A stretch of 64,000 nucleotides of DNA, taken from the NCBI RefSeq assembly GCF_040938485.1, contig NW_027271421.1, forward strand, positions 438,567 through 502,566, given 5' to 3'. Made by a program: the position numbers and the translations under genes. This DNA is from Diadema antillarum (Eukaryota). The notes beneath the pieces were generated by a model. That model was not told the DNA's origin and ran no database searches. It saw only the letters and a program-made list of their open reading frames with translations. Below are positions 28,950 through 64,000 of this stretch, piece by piece; position 1 is the first letter of the stretch; each line of letters starts with the position of its first letter.

Positions 28950-31037
28950 TTTCCCCTCGTGGTGTTATATCGACTGTAACAGCTCAAAATATAGCGTGTA
29001 AGTCGCTGGAAACTATCAAAGAGATCTGTCGGGAAAAGGAGCAAGCATTAAAATTTGTAACAACTGACAGATTTCCCCTCTTTGAAGCCATGCACTATCA
29101 ATTGAATGTCAATGTTTGTCCTGCTTTCCCTTTCCCGCGCTGTCTCAGAAAAAAAAAAAATCACCATTATTGACATACAAGGCTGGATAGCAAGATATGC
29201 AAGTCATGCAATGTTTTGTTGACAGTATTCATCACGGGACTCTTGAAAGAAATATTATCGGGGTCTTCGAGGTTATCAGAGCTACTTAAAACTCCTTACA
29301 CCTTTATTAAATTGAAATTATAACCGTCAACAGGGTCGTTGCGTATGGCAAAGCGGGAAGGTGTGGTATTGCCAGTTGCAGAGATAGGTATTAATCAATT
29401 TTACACCATTATTTTCTGTGTGATATGCTTTCTGTCATAATAAACAAGAATGTTGAATTAATTTCTAGTCGCACTTTATTGCCTTGATGACTCGATGAGC
29501 AACGCAGATTTGTTTGGTGTTTAAATAAATATCTATGTTGAATGTAGATTTTATATGCTTACCTCACTTGTCTTTAAATGCAACAGTCATGACAGTAATC
29601 TGGTTTAGATATGGAGAGGAGTTGACCAACCTAAGTCAAGAGCAGGGATGAGACTGCAAGACATCATGCGAAATACAATTCACTCTAATTTCATTCATTA
29701 TCACTCAATGTTAATTTTAATTGTTTGTCAAATTGCGACTAATTTCATTGATGAAAATGTGAAAGGTGCAAAACTTTGCAAATAATCAAAGATTCCCAAC
29801 GAGTCCGATCCCTGACCACCCGGCCTTCTCGTACATTTGAACTCGACATCATGAACTCGGGGCCATGACAGTGTCAGCGTGTGTCACTGTGTGCATAGCG
29901 TGTCGTGTTTTGTGTAGAATGAATACCGTGTATCAACGCGTGACGTTCATCGCCGAAAAACGATTGTCAACGTTCAGAATAAAGGCTATAAGAAATGCGT
30001 CCTCCTCCATGTTATAGACGGAGATGTTTTCCTGTTTAAAAGAACGTGTACTGATTTTTTTTTTTGTAACTTGGCCTTTTGAAATCAAGCTTTGTTTGAT
30101 GGTGAACCCCTGTACCTTTCCCCAAGTCAATTGTGTATAGTATGATGTATAATGTCTTGCATACATTATATACATTAATGTAGGGCCTAACATCTAAAAT
30201 AGCATATATCATTTTAGAATAAATTATTTTGGGTACTATCCATATGCAATTTCTTATCAAATGTTATAGATATCACCGAGATGGTAGACCAACGGTACAA
30301 TGTGTGCAGATCATCCATGAATTACAAAAAAAAAAACAAGTTGAAAAGACAAACACAGTCTTGAAGGAAGTCAGATGCTATACCATTTACCATTTAAAAA
30401 TATTGATGACTTCCAGATATTCGTGAAGTTGTGGCATCCATATTCATTAATTGTATATCATTTCATTTGAAAATATATTTGGATAAAGTTTAATCACAAA
30501 GTTGTGAAAAACAACATCAGTTTCCGTCACTTCTTCGCACATACGCAAATGCATACAAACATTAAAAACACGTGGGCAGAGATGCATGGGCATACGTAAT
30601 CACAACTTCAGTTTCCGTCACTTCTTCGCACATACGCAAATGCATACAAACATTAAAAACACGTGGGCAAAGATGCATGGGCATACGTAAAAAGTACAAT
30701 AAATGACAATCAAGATTTTTCCTTGTATCATGTAATCTGTATCACTACACTACAATGTCCATTACACAAGAAGAGCGGCAACAGGAAACGATCGAAGGTA
30801 GCGAGTCTACATCTTCTACTACTGCTGGTGATGATAAGTGTAACTGTAGTAGAAGTCAGTTACGCATCCAAAATCCACCGTAAGAAAATATATAAATCTT
30901 TTCAATTTTCTGCAAGTGCCTATTGTGTTTTTAAATTTGCAGGACGGGATGCACATGTAAAGTTGTCAGTTTCCCGCTGCGTTTTACTAAATGCAGTTGT
31001 AGTTTATAGCTGAAATTCTATATCGCGTAATCAATTC

Positions 31038-31403
31038 GGACGGGCGGTGAGTTGGCTCAGTCGGTTGCGCGTCTGCCTCACGATCACGCGGCCCGGGTTC
31101 GAACCCGAGTCCGAACTGAGCAATATTGTGTGTAAGCATACCGTCCCCTCTAGCAGGAGGCAAAACACTCTGTCCCTCGGATAGGACATAAAATAGAGGT
31201 CCCGTGTATGAGAGAGTAACAACTCATGCACGTAAAAGATCCCGCTTCATTCATTCATCGCAAAGAGCAGGGTGTTTAACCCAGTGAAGTGGTTCCACCT
31301 CTCATCCAACTGGACCCCATGGAAGACCAGCATCATGTTGCTGAATATGGGCTATCCAGCCATCTTCTCAGATGGAAATGAACAAACAACAAACAACAAA
31401 CAA
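31038..31403 (+). mobile_element. tRNA-derived SINE (pol III A box TGGCTCAGTCGG, B box GGTTCGAACCC, (CAAA)n-type tail)
   Basis: A/B boxes read at 31050-31100, and the tail aacaaacaacaaacaacaaacaaa at 31381-31403. A 5-bp direct repeat AATTC flanks both ends. The orthologous site in the duplicated unit (about 52505) is uninterrupted (ctcATTTCtcact). Confidence 0.55.
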
Positions 31404-32906
31404 AATTCTCAATGTTTATTATTTATTTATTATTCGTTCACTCATTATCTAACCATGAGAATACGATAGTGAATTCATGACGTGTGTAATATCACCCCTC
31501 CTCTTATGTTCTACACTGTAATTCTCTTGTGGCTCCTTGTCCACCAAGGTGAATTTCCGAGCACGTTAAAGTCGGCAAACACAAACATTTATGTGTTTAT
31601 CACTACACAGTCGAACGAGATATATACTTCATCTGCGTTGACTGGTAAAGCAAACCACTCTCTGTGCAACGTTCAATTCTATGTATCATCATGAGACAGT
31701 GACCAGGAGTATAATATCCTGCATTTCATTGTTTCAGTCTTAAAGAATTAATACAGTTATTAATTCTATGACATAATGGGGAAATATGTTATATATATAA
31801 AAGTTTAATTCAATGGGTTTATTAAGGTTCATATATCTTAGTTTTGTCTCTTTAAGGTGAAACGTTTGGTACGTTTTAACCATTCTTTCGACTATTTAAT
31901 GATTTAAGCAAACTTATGATACTTACACACTACAATGCAAATTGGACATACACTATGTTGGATTACACACTGAAGAATGACGGGACAGAAAACTGATAGA
32001 TGACAAGCAAGCGGAATGTATGTGCAAATGTCGTGGAGCAAACACTTTAGAGTGTTTATATTGACAATTCCTTTGGAATATCACTGTTGTAGAAAGTATG
32101 TCCTTTAGGATACTCCTGGTCAGATTTAGATTGTTCGTCAGTCATTTGACATGTCGATCATTTTTCCACTAGACAATACTTCACGGCAGAATTCGCTTAC
32201 TCAGGTCTTCGCTTAAGATTTTAATTTAAGAAAACTGCTGTTGTACTTTTATTTACAAGTAAAACCAGAATGACCACATGACTGCCACGTATCCAATGGT
32301 ATCCGCGTTGTTGGTATCAGAAGGGCTCACATTTGATTCTTTTAAGACAACTTTTGAAAACTCAAAAAGAATTTGAATAACGATCAAGAATTACAACAAC
32401 TTTGTCAATCAGAATACGATGATGGACACTGTCAGAGATAACTATGCATGATCAATGTAAATGTAAACATAACAGGTACATGATAAGCCAAAGCATGCCC
32501 CTTAATTCAAATTTTGCATTATACGAAATCATACCAAAAAAAGGTAAAACTATTAGAGAAAATAACACATGAGGCAAAGAGGTCATGTGATCGAAGGAAG
32601 GTCTCGTGTTCGTACGGTGAAGATTTGTAATCAACTTTAGATCTTAGATTGCATTTTATATTATTATAACGGGGAGTTCATGTAACTTTTCATTGCTGAT
32701 TGATAACAATATTTTAATATCTTTTATGATTATTTCAGACACCATGATCTACACACTATGTGCTTCAAGTCATTCTGTTTTGCAATTTCCAGGCAATATT
32801 AAACTGACTCGGGTACTGTGTTGTCAAACTAGCTCCAATTCAAATAAAGACATGTAGATGTAAATCGACTCAGAGCATTCAAGGTAGCTTATACGATCAA
32901 GCCAGA

Positions 32907-33022
32907 TTAACTGCAGGTAGGTTCATTCTTGTATTCCTCGAACGCCTGCTGCCATGCTGTCATCTCAGTCTTCCAGTCATCATAACTTTCCCGCCATTCC
33001 TTCTCAATGTCACTAATGTCGT
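32907..33022 (-). CDS. P4 exon 10 (terminal; DISDIEKEWRESYDDWKTEMTAWQQAFEEYKNEPTCS, stop TAA 32907-32909)
   Basis: Acceptor ctttccag|, phase 1. WAT-like Trp heptad and C-terminal Cys. Confidence 0.75.
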
Positions 33023-33395
33023 CTGGAAAGAGAGTGAGACAGAATGAAGAATCGTTGTAATTACCACAATTAGCGCTCTTTCTTTTTAGAGTTCAAACTT
33101 ACATGCTGCTCGTCTGGCCGTGCAGACCATTGGCAAATCTCAAAAACGTTTTGAAGTTGCTTTTCTGCCGAGGAATTTCTTATAAATCTCATATTTTAGT
33201 GAAGTTCTGTGATTGATGACATCTATACCCAATTTCATTAAAAAACGAAGATGGCACATTCACACTCTTTACCTTGGAAGAAGATATGACGTTGAAAAAA
33301 AATTAAAAAGCCGAAGACAAATTATAAGGTTGATTGCTGAGCAATTTATATCAAACATATAGTATAACGAAGTGATTATGCTCTCGAAAAAATAC

Positions 33396-33577
33396 CTGTA
33401 AAAGCCACGAGCGACGGGAAGTAGTGGTTCCAGAAATGGCACTGCCTGGCTCTGACAGCCCTCCCTGTTGGCAATCCTATGGCTATCTCCTTGTATGTGA
33501 GTTCAGGGATCGTGTACTCTGGCCAGGCGTACTGTCCTTCCAACGGGTCTGAATCCATGCTCGGCTTACTCGGATTT
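33396..33577 (-). CDS. P4 exon 9 (NPSKPSMDSDPLEGQYAWPEYTIPELTYKEIAIGLPTGRAVRARQCHFWNHYFPSLVAFT)
   Basis: Anchored to ORF 33376..33606. Acceptor attgtag|, donor g|gtattt, 182 nt. Confidence 0.8.
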
Positions 33578-63071: not shown

Positions 63072-63190
63072 CTCCATGATTGCATGACTGAAATAAGGTC
63101 GACTCAGTTTTGAGAGGAGGTGAAAGCTCACGCTTCCAGATCCAGCGCTCACTCCAAAAATTGTGATTCTGTCCTTGTCACCTCCGAAGG
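63072..63190 (-). CDS. P5 exon 5 (nucleophile elbow variant: [40 protein letters not shown])
   Basis: Acceptor tcctcag|, donor gag|gtgtga. The motif reads GVSAG (codon GTG) where P4 has GESAG (GAG). Confidence 0.75.
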
Positions 63191-63378
63191 CTGAGGAAAG
63201 AGAATCATAGGATGGAAAAAGATAGACAGGTGATCATAATAAAATAAAAAATACAAATTTAAGAAAATAAAAAATGGATGGATGATGTATTCAAATATAG
63301 GCGGGTGAGTACTACTAGCAATGGGTAGGTCCTTTAAGGGTTAACTGGCTGACTTTATAAAGAGGAAGGAAAAAGAAA

Positions 63379-63470
63379 GATATATATATATATATATATA
63401 TATATATATATACATATATATATATATATATATATATACATATATATATATATAGAGAGAGAGAGAGAGA
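63379..63470. repeat. (AT)n(AG)n compound microsatellite
   Basis: Read directly. Confidence 0.8.
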
Positions 63471-63895
63471 GAGAAAGGACATTTATCAAAAACATGAGAT
63501 TCATGCCAGTATTCGAAATGGTTAAATCAGAAAGATTTGATAATCTGACTTAAATATGAAATATGACTGCAGTATTAATGAAGTACTGTGATTTGAACAA
63601 ACATACACACACACACATATACATATATCATAATTATTATTTAAAGCATTGTGTTCATGTACATATATCTGTCAGTCTTACAGTCTTATGGAAATAAGTA
63701 GACCCATATTCCTTTCAATTGTTACCGATATCATCTGAGATATTTCCACTGAATCCTGCAATATCTTGCTACCCTGCTGAACTACATTTAATGTGATTAT
63801 TAAAACAAATGGTTAATACATGAAATCAAGGAATAAATGCCATATCCATCCCAATATCAGATACCTATTTTGCTCTGATACCTGGGTATTATTAC

Positions 63896-63973
63896 CTTCA
63901 ATGTTAGTATAGACCCACTTGAGAGCTGCCACCTGATCCAGCATACCAACATTACCAGGAGCTTCTTCATCAG
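63896..63973 (-). CDS. P5 exon 4 (ADEEAPGNVGMLDQVAALKWVYTNIE)
   Basis: Identical splice context to P4 exon 4. Exons 1-3 lie beyond the window end. Confidence 0.75.
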
Positions 63974-64000
63974 CTGGTGGAAGATAAGATTGAGAAGAAT

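Follow-up and report, generated by a model that had tools for sequence, protein, structure and literature searches.

Five cholinesterase-like genes lie in tandem within the window, the 64-kb stretch of Diadema antillarum DNA that was analysed; all are on the minus strand and, in the direction of the genes, run P5, P4, P3, P2, P1. P4 and P5 are the most similar pair of this array, and the question raised by the locus is whether they stem from one recent duplication, as the original prediction held, or are older members of the array. Intron and flank homology like that between P4 and P5 was sought in the other three paralogs of the window, and none comparable was found. The two units and their genes are as follows.

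30950-52435, minus strand: P4 repeat unit (3′ flank, gene, 5′ flank/spacer), adjoining paralog P3; from the colinear blastn chain
52436-64000, minus strand: P5 repeat unit, truncated within exon 4/intron 3 by the end of the window
32910-50125, minus strand: P4 cholinesterase-like gene, 10 exons, all open, canonical splice contexts, active-site motif FGESAG
50125-49964, 49254-49072, 48295-48134, 47724-47647, 45594-45475, minus strand: P4 exons 1-5
39482-39315, 37470-37024, 34512-34318, 33576-33397, 33023-32910, minus strand: P4 exons 6-10
54682-64000, minus strand: P5 cholinesterase-like gene, exons 4-10 visible, all open, active-site motif FGVSAG
63974-63897, 63191-63072, 58722-58555, 57743-57297, minus strand: P5 exons 4-7
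56153-55959, 55707-55528, 54795-54682, minus strand: P5 exons 8-10

The gene products of the array carry the type-B carboxylesterase domain (PF00135). AChE/BChE rank top among solved structures for the P4 product (E about 1e-89), with the C-terminal T-peptide aligned, and the closest protein matches are Diadema proteins. The match is exact across all exons for XP_071499733 with P3 and for XP_071499715 with P2; the RefSeq model XP_071499740 is a fusion, in which P5 exons 1-7 are joined to P4 exons 8-10. The array resembles the echinoderm cholinesterase-like expansions ('cholinesterase 1' or 'acetylcholinesterase-like' in Strongylocentrotus, Lytechinus and Diadema) in its many paralogs per genome, its PF00135 domain with a Ser/Glu/His catalytic context, and a C-terminal, tryptophan-rich, T-peptide-like exon that can be aligned to the vertebrate AChE T peptide. 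The P5 lineage differs in having FGVSAG in place of the canonical FGESAG. A cholinesterase function, and the substrate, are putative for the genes of the array. With open exons, canonical splice sites and a dN/dS of 0.34 (dS 0.164) between them, P4 and P5 are both probably functional.

A strictly colinear blastn chain connects P4 31406-47750 with P5 52514-64000 (E-values down to 0), and the full colinear match covers 30950-47750 in the P4 unit and 52435-64000 in the P5 unit, where it is ended by the window edge. The predicted whole-length alignment is borne out over all comparable sequence; 11.6 kb of the P5 unit lie within the window, so that P4 47750-52400 is without a comparison partner. 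Three D. setosum copies (X, Y and Z, from one assembly) were compared with P4 and P5. The left limit of the P4 unit falls at ~30956, equivalent to ~52440 in P5 when bridged via homology to the D. setosum Z-Y spacer, and the junction (30930/52400) and length (21.5 kb) first proposed are about right. The spacer between P5 and P4 (50200-52700) is colinear with both the Z-Y and Y-X spacers of D. setosum and is a normal internal spacer of the array. The two units are true head-to-tail paralogs.

Copy X of D. setosum is a contiguous hybrid gene: its 5′ part and body are P5-type, its exon 9b-10 and 3′ flank P4-type. Its matches follow in order: P5 body (7.6 kb, 94.3%), P4 tail and flank (2.2 kb, 92.1%), and the DNA upstream of P3 (94.3%); the P5 gene body (55871-63406) and D. 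setosum gene P0126 share 94.3% identity. A 400-bp sliding window along the hybrid passes from P5-type (90-98.5%) to P4-type (90-97%) sequence. Hybrid exons 5-8 are 97-99% identical to P5, while exon 9 matches P4 at 98.4% and exon 10 at 99.2%; 164 diagnostic nucleotide sites agree with the switch, which is confined to these intervals:

33500-34290, minus strand: unequal-crossover interval, P4 side, exon 9/intron 8, from sliding window, exon identities and the 164 diagnostic sites
55630-55920: its counterpart on the P5 side

D. setosum is without one ~22-kb unit (P5 tail, spacer, P4 body), and this, together with the hybrid gene, is the signature of unequal crossing-over. Hybrid genes formed by non-allelic homologous recombination (NAHR) are well known, such as the haemoglobin Lepore delta-beta fusion and the red/green opsin and CYP2D6/2D7 hybrids. 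As in those cases, the recombinant combines the 5′ part of one paralog with the 3′ part of the next, exactly one unit is lost, and the crossover lies in the most similar stretch; as in arrays remodelled by NAHR, head-to-tail paralogs have common spacers and segments with discordant genealogies. The Diadema hybrid differs in being seen between species, and probably between haplotypes, and not as a disease allele. At 14-16%, the divergence of the paralogs in neutral DNA is high for NAHR, but in the exon 9 region they are ~94-96% identical.

The copy-number change was most likely a deletion in the D. setosum-type haplotype, because a body as distant from P5, X and Y as that of P4 (~0.15; K2P 0.13-0.16) must represent an old lineage, an argument that stops short of a donor-free proof. 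It is quite unlikely that the D. setosum arrangement (three genes, X adjoining P3) is ancestral and that the D. antillarum haplotype of the window acquired the ~22-kb unit through an unequal exchange or an insertion specific to its lineage. Annotation of the other D. antillarum contig includes an X-type protein (XP_071492944) that switches in the same interval of exon 9, and the hybrid arrangement is seen in two species, the P5+P4 arrangement once. A gain after speciation, however, requires a donor that shares at least ~95% identity with the P4 body and the P5 3′ flank. The copies seen include none: the P4 body stands at the distances just given, Y and Z each lie 0.19 from the P5 flank, and the best database protein for P4 is just 90% identical and is itself the fusion model XP_071499740. 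By reasoning, if X had exchanged with a copy upstream of it, the duplication product would also keep a full X beside P3, which is not observed.

A single recent 21.5-kb duplication at ~8% divergence, followed by insertions from at least five transposon families, was the original explanation of P4 and P5. It fits the colinearity of the units, the exon divergence and the reality of the listed inserts, with their empty sister sites, but is already contradicted by the distances and is less probable again than a D. setosum-type ancestor. Aligned columns are 82% identical overall, and divergence amounts to 6.8% in exons, 14.1% in introns, 14.1% in the LINE of intron 5 and 20.9% in the 3′ flank (K2P 0.072, 0.156, 0.158 and 0.246), the HSP- and MAFFT-based distances being approximate in diverged non-coding DNA. 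The figure of ~8% suits the exons alone, against 14-16% in neutral DNA of introns, LINE and gene body, the dS noted above, and 21-30% in the 3′ flank. Orthologous controls give K2P values of 0.036 (P5-X LINE), 0.042 (P4-X flank) and 0.049 (P3 5′ flank). The gene bodies of P4 and P5 thus differ by ~0.16 substitutions per neutral site, 3-5 times the divergence of D. antillarum and D. setosum (0.03-0.05), and the 3′ flanks are about twice as diverged as the bodies. Since the P5 body and the P4 tail each have a D. setosum orthologue at 3-5% divergence, the P4/P5 split predates the split of the two species. Nor do the genealogies allow a single event. Across the gene body, roughly equal distances separate P4, P5 and Y (K2P 0.13-0.16), and Z is the outgroup (0.35-0.40); across the 3′ flank the outgroup is P4 (0.29-0.32), with P5, Y and Z grouped together at 0.19. 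At least two further D. setosum units share the spacer. The unit is a mosaic whose parts have at least two different ages, in an array with four copies or more, and, as part of the array account, P4 and P5 are in all likelihood old paralogs and not a recent single duplicate.

Least credible, and very improbable, is an assembly artefact in which P4 and P5 are two alleles of one locus joined in tandem with both haplotypes retained: the annotated D. antillarum assembly does retain both haplotypes (PMC13511894), at 1.75 Gb for a haploid size of ~703 Mb and with 84.4% duplicated BUSCOs (PMC13511894; bioRxiv 10.64898/2026.05.24.727502), and a second contig also carries an annotated copy of the array, but the P4/P5 divergence of 14-30% far exceeds the 2.52% heterozygosity of the genome as a whole, a separate 2.94-Mb contig already represents the other haplotype, the P5-to-P4 junction is continuous canonical spacer homologous to the Z-Y and Y-X spacers where a false join would show P3-upstream sequence against upstream sequence, and the P4 body is equally distant (~0.15) from all other copies in both species. 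This scenario, raised earlier as the one to rule out, is excluded by sequence logic (divergence, spacer, distances) rather than by read-level data.

The insertions of P4 and P5 are given next, the LINE of intron 5 first.

39572-44926, plus strand: intron 5 of P4, decayed non-LTR LINE in antisense orientation relative to the gene, (GA)n tail
39687-40854, plus strand: part of the LINE deleted in the P5 lineage, 1168 bp, beginning 115 bp after the LINE 5′ end
58795-62539 (approximate limits), plus strand: intron-5 LINE in P5, bearing the 1168-bp internal deletion

In P4 the LINE is flanked by a 9-bp duplication, ATGCACGAG, at 39563-39571 and 44927-44935, and contains weak RVT_1 matches (E 5e-6 and 8e-4, a reverse transcriptase signal below the Pfam threshold) and a FADD motif. 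It is common to P4, P5 and X, is present in Y with large deletions, and is absent from Z. The 1168-bp gap is identical in P5 and X, and Y keeps P4 39687-39725; the deletion is older than the species split. The 1.17-kb difference is, as proposed, a loss in P5 and not a gain in P4, but it is internal and does not remove the 5′ end.

For the remaining copy-specific sequences, indel polarity and target-site duplications were read against up to four empty sites per insert, and transposon classes are inferred from structure alone. Those found only in P4 are:

31038-31403, plus strand: tRNA-derived SINE, A box TGGCTCAGTCGG, B box GGTTCGAACCC, (CAAACAA)n tail, 5-bp duplication AATTC
33749-34218, no strand: 470-bp insert, 6-bp duplication ATCTAT, (TA)n at left end
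34970-35416, no strand: MITE-like insert, inverted repeats of ~15 bp (CGCCAGTTCGTAATT), replaces ~22 bp; empty in P5, X, Y
35992-36992, no strand: non-autonomous Harbinger-like element, 55-bp inverted repeats (93%); empty in P5, X, Y
37557-38109, no strand: 553-bp insert, class unassigned, flanked by TATAA repeats; empty in P5, X, Y
38732-39147, no strand: 416-bp insert, 7-bp duplication ATAWTAT (6/7 bases match)
41279-41823, no strand: MITE nested in the LINE, 18-bp inverted repeats (AGGGCTTTTTACACTTGT), 3-bp duplication AAA; empty in P5, X
45707-45901, no strand: 195-bp inverted-repeat element, ends GGGCAATTACCCC / GGGGTAATTGCCC, with a degenerate (CCTAA/CCCTAA)n tract inside
46309-47090, minus strand: 5′-truncated LINE fragment, ORF2 C-terminal end (...LQRVQNSAARL...), (ATT)n tail; absent from Y
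47195-47549, no strand: foldback element, 349-bp palindrome, arms 93% complementary, (T/C)TTAAA duplication; empty in P5, X, Y, Z

Those found only in P5 are:

52816-52951, no strand: hairpin MITE, 26-bp inverted repeats including the CCWGG target, 5-bp duplication CCTGG/CCAGG; empty in P4, Y, Z
53182-53817, minus strand: 636-bp insert, ORF remnant (...FK..LKTHIF), (CAT)n tail; empty in P4, X, Y, Z
55093-55462, no strand: ancestral segment that P5 retains and P4 has lost by deletion, not an insertion

The SINE, whose site is empty in P5 and in the Z-Y spacer, has the Pol III A and B boxes, tRNA-like head, simple-repeat tail and short duplication typical of tRNA-derived SINEs; its head is too degenerate for the tRNA models of ARAGORN and Rfam, neither of which gave a call. 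The Harbinger-like element has an exact TAA duplication (35989-35991 and 36993-36995), and this 3-bp target and the long terminal inverted repeats resemble non-autonomous PIF/Harbinger elements (Tourist-like MITEs). The nested MITE also has a 3-bp duplication, AAA and not the usual TWA. Unlike that family, 35992-36992 shows no detectable transposase or Myb-like ORF remnant and no other copies in the sequence searched. The 46309-47090 fragment gave no Pfam domain hit and is classed as a LINE by its motifs. The P5-only insert 53182-53817 is probably the heavily 5′-truncated 3′ end of a LINE; a Pfam search of it was without hit. Z (spanning alignment) and Y retain the segment 55093-55462, which neither P4 nor the P4-type tail of X contains.

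The element at 45707-45901 had been read as a telomere-repeat insertion. The insertion is real, and its CCTAA/CCCTAA-like units, which span ~100 bp and are complementary to TTAGGG-type repeats, recall interstitial telomeric repeats; they are, however, degenerate and lie between inverted terminal sequences flanked by an exact 10-bp duplication, TGGATAGATC (45697-45706 and 45902-45911), the target of which is single copy in Y and Z. The telomere-like tract therefore arrived as cargo of a small mobile element, and insertion by telomerase or repair was rejected on the same features. Mutator-like elements typically give 9-11-bp duplications.

The copy-specific sequences originally listed are genuine post-divergence insertions of several transposon classes with empty sister sites, and their coordinates were nearly exact, the Harbinger-like element starting at 35992 (not 35984) and the P5 insert at 53182 (not 53172). 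Intact target-site duplications, claimed for each, were found for the SINE, Harbinger-like element, MITE, 45707-45901, foldback and hairpin MITE; no clean one was found for the ~640-bp insert or for 34970-35416. The list had missed five P4-only inserts (33749-34218, 34970-35416, 37557-38109, 38732-39147 and 46309-47090) as well as the P4 deletion at 55093-55462. As dates, the insertions are younger than the P4/P5 split, and for just one, 33749-34218, an origin after the split from the D. setosum lineage is shown: its site is empty in P5, X, Y and Z, and the X sequence to the left and right of that site is P4-type. Activity of at least five families was not confirmed, as in the ~160 kb searched repeat copies were found for the foldback (D. 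setosum L001 3091-3445, 97%, and 10845-11195, 90%) and part of 38732-39147 alone (3′ part, 86% identity to D. setosum composite 55781-55890), and only the foldback has full other copies.

The homology, indel polarity, distances and D. setosum hybrid are the direct basis for regarding P4 and P5, with good confidence, as old cholinesterase-like paralogs in a multi-copy array reshaped by unequal crossing-over and carrying copy-specific insertions. The array has been remodelled repeatedly by such non-allelic homologous recombination, possibly with a contribution from gene conversion, giving the parts of a unit different genealogies. The antisense LINE entered intron 5 after Z separated and before the P4, P5 and Y lineages parted; the P4 lineage later gained at least 11 insertions (SINE, several MITEs, two LINE fragments and others), and the P5 lineage two, with loss of 1168 bp of the LINE. 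The asymmetry in the gene body (9 insertions in P4 vs 0 in P5, p = 0.004) is not explained by the array account. One exchange, located where the paralogs are most alike (exon 9/intron 8), can be seen directly in the D. setosum hybrid of P5 body and P4 tail, an arrangement that lacks one ~22-kb unit. Array remodelling of this kind, together with copy-specific transposons, is ordinary genome biology.

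The window (about 39% G+C, 0 Ns) carries five tandem cholinesterase-like paralogs, all on the minus strand, which were located by tblastn with pieces of the P4 ORF:

296-2724, minus strand, P1, 5′ exons only
4835-17550, minus strand, P2
20142-28949, minus strand, P3
32910-50125, minus strand, P4
54682 to beyond 64000, minus strand, P5

When translated, the most conserved stretches of the window were assigned to the type-B carboxylesterase family (PF00135). A hand-assembled P4 protein gave its best matches among solved structures to acetyl- and butyrylcholinesterases (E ~1e-89), and its top database matches were 'cholinesterase-like' proteins of Diadema antillarum and D. 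setosum. The contexts of the catalytic Ser (GxSxG; FGESAG/FGVSAG), Glu (NKDEG/NEDEG) and His (THGEE/AHGEE) are present in open exons, and P4 and P5 are predicted to be cholinesterase-type carboxylesterases with a COesterase domain (PF00135). Exon 10 (EKEWRESYDDWKTEMTAWQQAFEEYK) aligned with the Torpedo-type AChE T peptide in 6euc, and the predicted C-terminus is of the T-peptide type (tryptophan amphiphilic tetramerisation). All ten exons of P4, and exons 4-10 of P5, are open and have splice contexts like those of the exactly annotated P3. Every exon of XP_071499733 and XP_071499715 was matched with 0 mismatches (exact 7-mer mapping) by P3 and P2, respectively, so the window belongs to the NCBI-annotated D. 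antillarum assembly. In P5 exon 5 (63191-63072) a Glu to Val change beside the catalytic serine replaces the canonical cholinesterase FGESAG by FGVSAG. Carriers of FGVSAG make up the P5 lineage (P5, XP_071492944, XP_071499740 and X, one of three P4/P5-like gene copies, X, Y and Z, of D. setosum), and FGESAG is kept in P4 (exon 5, 45594-45475), Y, Z and XP_071499741.

Several introns of the neighbouring genes hold repeats. A satellite-like tandem array at 11217-13396 (169 bp unit with a 346 bp higher-order unit, about 13 copies matching at 79-85%) takes up much of the intron that separates exons 3 (14800-14958) and 4 (10404-10481) of P2. Intron 8 of P3 has two short arrays of 16 bp units, at 21272-21348 (TCGTTATTCCGAAGGT) and 21475-21537 (TTCGGAATAACGAACC), which are mutually reverse-complementary and together form a foldback-like structure. 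A segment of P3 intron 1 (28259-28659) matches positions 16345-16737 of the D. setosum composite (copy Z intron 8) in inverted orientation at 89.6% identity, and is probably another dispersed repeat family.

P4 and P5 were compared by blastn (52400-64000 against 30900-52400, together with a whole-window self-comparison) and by whole-unit alignment (MAFFT FFT-NS-2 and HSP chaining). The plus/plus blastn chain is strictly colinear from 31406/52514 to 47750/64000, while the self-comparison found no sequence shared between P1-P3 and P4/P5 outside exons. Exons, introns and flanks are colinear in head-to-tail order, as true tandem paralogs should be, and the unit limits of the original prediction (30930/52400, about 21.5 kb) agree with a left homology limit at ~30956 and ~52440 and a period of ~21.1-21.5 kb. 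The global alignment shows 82.2% identity over 10,009 aligned columns. The predicted divergence of about 8% does not describe the unit, as differences range from 6.8% in exons to 14.1% in introns and the LINE and 20.9% in the 3′ flank. Synonymous divergence in exons 5-10 is 0.164, with a dN/dS of 0.34, and an age dated on exon identity alone (~7%) comes out roughly twofold too young here.

Divergence between P4 and P5 by sequence class
Exons: differences 6.8%, K2P 0.072
Introns: differences 14.1%, K2P 0.156
Shared LINE: differences 14.1%, K2P 0.158
3′ flank: differences 20.9%, K2P 0.246 (0.30 in the five-way alignment)

The outgroup was D. setosum chromosome OZ188199.1, where 64.4 kb are covered by three overlapping loci. 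Read in the direction of the genes, these carry a PARP-like gene, Z (P0127), Y (P0130), X (P0126) and the P3 orthologue; a separate D. setosum locus has the P1 orthologue and, after it, an adhesion GPCR. Gene X, 11 kb and contiguous in OZ188199.1, matches P5 55871-63406 over 7.6 kb that take in the LINE (94.3%), and directly downstream it matches P4 31592-33748 (92.1%) and then DNA upstream of P3 (28873-30160, 94.3%). A 400 bp sliding test gave 90-98.5% for P5 against 76-89% for P4 in the first part of X, and 90-97% for P4 against 78-86% for P5 in the second. Exons 5-8 are of P5 type (97-99%), exons 9 (98.4%) and 10 (99.2%) of P4 type, and at 164 diagnostic nucleotide sites X follows P4 as far as P4 position 34236 and P5 from ~34240. 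Since the match, sliding, exon and site tests all show the switch from P5 to P4, X is a contiguous P5-body/P4-tail hybrid (body being the gene body, and tail the 3′ gene end with its flank).

With one type switch, agreeing flanks and one unit missing, X has the features of a NAHR-derived hybrid gene. The unit missing in D. setosum is ~22 kb long (P5 tail, spacer and P4 body), and the crossover interval (P4 ~33500-34290, P5 ~55630-55920) falls at exon 9/intron 8, the stretch of highest similarity between the paralogs (94%). Orthologues at a divergence of 0.03-0.05 are present in D. setosum for the P5 body and the P4 tail, one each, and none was found for the P4 body in the retrieved D. setosum loci.

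Orthology with positions 55782-56274 of the D. setosum composite breaks at window positions 30161-31586, about 0.5 kb corresponding to about 1.4 kb in the window. The longer stretch holds a SINE and a 91 bp tandem repeat in two copies (30511-30690, 97%); the shorter one opens with a copy of the element inserted at window 38732-39147.

Distances among the five copies (P4, P5, X, Y and Z)
Gene body (exon 6 to intron 7): closest P5-X, 0.029; P4, P5/X and Y mutually 0.134-0.156; outgroup Z, 0.35-0.40
3′ flank: closest P4-X, 0.052; P5, Y and Z mutually 0.19; outgroup P4/X, 0.28-0.32

A single duplication event, as originally proposed, is contradicted by these matrices, which conflict between gene body (K2P 0.156) and 3′ flank (0.246-0.30). 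The unit is therefore a mosaic of at least two ages, and a single 'unit divergence' is meaningless for such a recombination mosaic. At the supposed junction, the spacer sequence (50200-52700) aligns colinearly with the Z-Y and Y-X spacers of D. setosum and is of the normal kind for an array of at least four units. If internal units exchanged repeatedly while the terminal unit kept its old distal flank, then a mosaic pattern of this kind would be expected.

The P4 body is 0.13-0.16 from all other copies in both species, and so represents an old lineage. The copy-number difference is most simply read as a deletion by unequal crossing-over on a D. setosum-type haplotype rather than as a recent gain in D. 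antillarum. A gain of the ~22 kb unit specific to D. antillarum would have no plausible donor among the copies compared. A recent single duplication of P4/P5 is excluded, the hybrid X and the conflicting five-copy genealogies both counting against it. The assembly of D. antillarum keeps both haplotypes (1.75 Gb against ~703 Mb haploid), with 2.52% heterozygosity and 84.4% duplicated BUSCOs (PMC13511894; bioRxiv 10.64898/2026.05.24.727502). Misassembled alleles are nevertheless very unlikely as the source of the two units: P4-P5 divergence is 14-30% (K2P 0.156-0.30 against a heterozygosity of 0.025), the P5-P4 junction is a canonical array spacer, a separate contig already represents the other haplotype, and the P5 body and P4 tail have their own D. 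setosum orthologues at 0.03-0.05. The locus is an old tandem gene array, in which unequal crossing-over and the collection of transposons are ordinary biology.

The element common to intron 5 of P4 and P5, a putative non-LTR LINE, is missing from Z, and this exposes its limits in P4:

39572-44926, plus strand (antisense to the gene), LINE in P4 intron 5, 9 bp duplications and (GA)n tail
~58795-62539, LINE in P5 intron 5

The 9 bp target duplication (ATGCACGAG) lies at 39563-39571 and 44927-44935. The ORFs are decayed, with RVT_1 fragments (E 5e-6 and 8e-4) below the gathering score, a FADD motif, and an endonuclease-like ORF recognised by eye only. As the LINE is absent from Z and present in P4, P5 and Y (where the copy carries two large deletions), it inserted after Z diverged and before the lineages of P4, P5 and Y separated. 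The 1168 bp gap in P5 (P4 39687-40854) is identical in X and is a P5-lineage deletion older than the species split; an insertion in P4 was ruled out, as Y retains the first 38 bp. The original prediction correctly described this 1.17 kb difference as a loss in P5, but it begins 115 bp inside the LINE and does not remove the 5′ end.

The segments present in one unit only are as follows:

31038-31403, P4 insertion, tRNA-derived SINE; A box TGGCTCAGTCGG, B box GGTTCGAACCC, (CAAACAA)n tail, duplication AATTC
33749-34218, P4 insertion; duplication ATCTAT, empty in P5, X, Y and Z
34970-35416, P4 insertion, MITE-like
35992-36992 (predicted from 35984), P4 insertion, Harbinger-like; TAA exact on both sides, 55 bp inverted repeats (93%)
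37557-38109, P4 insertion
38732-39147, P4 insertion; duplication ATAWTAT
41279-41823, P4 insertion, MITE inside the LINE; 18 bp inverted repeats, AAA duplication
45707-45901, P4 insertion, 'telomere' element; inverted ends, degenerate (CCTAA/CCCTAA)n inside, exact 10 bp duplication TGGATAGATC
46309-47090, P4 insertion, 5′-truncated LINE fragment
47195-47549, P4 insertion, foldback; 349 bp palindrome (93%), TTAA-containing duplication
52816-52951, P5 insertion, hairpin MITE
53182-53817 (predicted from 53172), P5 insertion; (CAT)n tail, without a clean duplication

The elements predicted earlier are real and their coordinates accurate throughout, our values differing only at the ends of the Harbinger-like element, the MITE, the foldback and the 640 bp insert (53182-53817). 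The list was incomplete, however, lacking five P4-only segments (33749-34218, 34970-35416, 37557-38109, 38732-39147 and 46309-47090) and the P5-only segment 55093-55462. The latter is not an insertion in P5, since it is present in Y and Z, but a deletion in P4 that is common to the P4-type tail of X. X is also P4-type around 33749-34218 and yet empty there, so that insert came in after the D. setosum lineage had split off.

The SINE has an empty site, and its A and B boxes were identified by reading; ARAGORN and Rfam (E up to 0.1) called nothing in 30000-64000, so no recognisable tRNA fold, and no second copy was found in ~160 kb (the window and 97 kb of D. setosum). The TAA target of the Harbinger-like element is single in three empty sites and fits the 3 bp TWA duplication of PIF/Harbinger. 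Its ORF remnants gave no Pfam match (DDE_Tnp_4 transposase or Myb-like) and one homologue, an unannotated 106 aa protein, a result compatible with a non-autonomous derivative. The segment at 45707-45901 had been called a telomere-repeat insertion, a description that does not fit degenerate units enclosed in an inverted-end element with an exact target duplication; the target is single in both Y and Z. The foldback has two copies (97% and 90%) in one of the D. setosum loci (L001). The insert at 53182-53817 is probably a LINE 3′ end, and its ORF remnants, like those of 46309-47090, had no Pfam match. Beyond the foldback family and part of 38732-39147, no other copies of the inserts were found in the window and 97 kb of D. 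setosum. Since the paralogs split, nine insertions have entered the introns of P4 (body, 33000-47750) against 0 in those of P5 (54700-64000; binomial p = 0.004). Despite this asymmetry, amino-acid changes are about as many on one branch as on the other (~14 against 17, with Y as outgroup).

The RefSeq protein XP_071499740 combines P5 exons 4-7 (57297-63974) and P4 exons 8-10 (32910-34512), both exactly, and its P5 part continues past the end of the window. The switch falls exactly at the exon 7/8 boundary and implies an 'intron' of 22.8 kb that skips P5 exons 8-10 and P4 exons 1-7, all of which are open and have canonical splice sites. Being built from the window sequence and switching at an exon boundary, XP_071499740 is an annotation fusion model; exact k-mer mapping to the window and the exon-boundary switch rule it out as a real hybrid allele. 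A less likely reading would take the P5 exon 7-P4 exon 8 junction as real read-through or cross-paralog splicing. Because of the fusion, the cholinesterase genes of Diadema will be miscounted at this locus, and orthology will be wrongly called.

A different case is XP_071492944, from a 2.94 Mb D. antillarum contig and known from the protein model alone, in which residues switch from P5 to P4 inside exon 9, within the same 10 codons as in D. setosum X. A real hybrid gene may therefore lie on the other D. antillarum haplotype. It is possible, though we consider it rather unlikely, that the ~22 kb P5-tail/P4-body unit is a heterozygous presence/absence polymorphism in the sequenced D. antillarum, with the hybrid form shared with D. 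setosum. Such sharing would reflect either descent (trans-species polymorphism) or recurrent crossover at an exon 9 hotspot. If the polymorphism is real, then individuals carry either two genes (an FGVSAG-type P5 and an FGESAG-type P4) or one hybrid, and the excess of insertions in P4 could stem from selection acting differently on the two arrangements.

The original observation as a whole is real and was carefully made; what is added here is a corrected history, a hybrid gene with a copy-number difference, and a mis-fused RefSeq model. The polarised insertions, with their empty sites, could seed the curation of Diadema transposon families. The locus is a clean but ordinary case of tandem gene family evolution, with recurrent unequal exchange, the formation of hybrid genes and a build-up of transposons, in a marine invertebrate that is highly polymorphic. 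If the 22 kb unit segregates as a copy-number variant, it could serve directly as a marker and, in a species of conservation concern, would be a candidate functional polymorphism.
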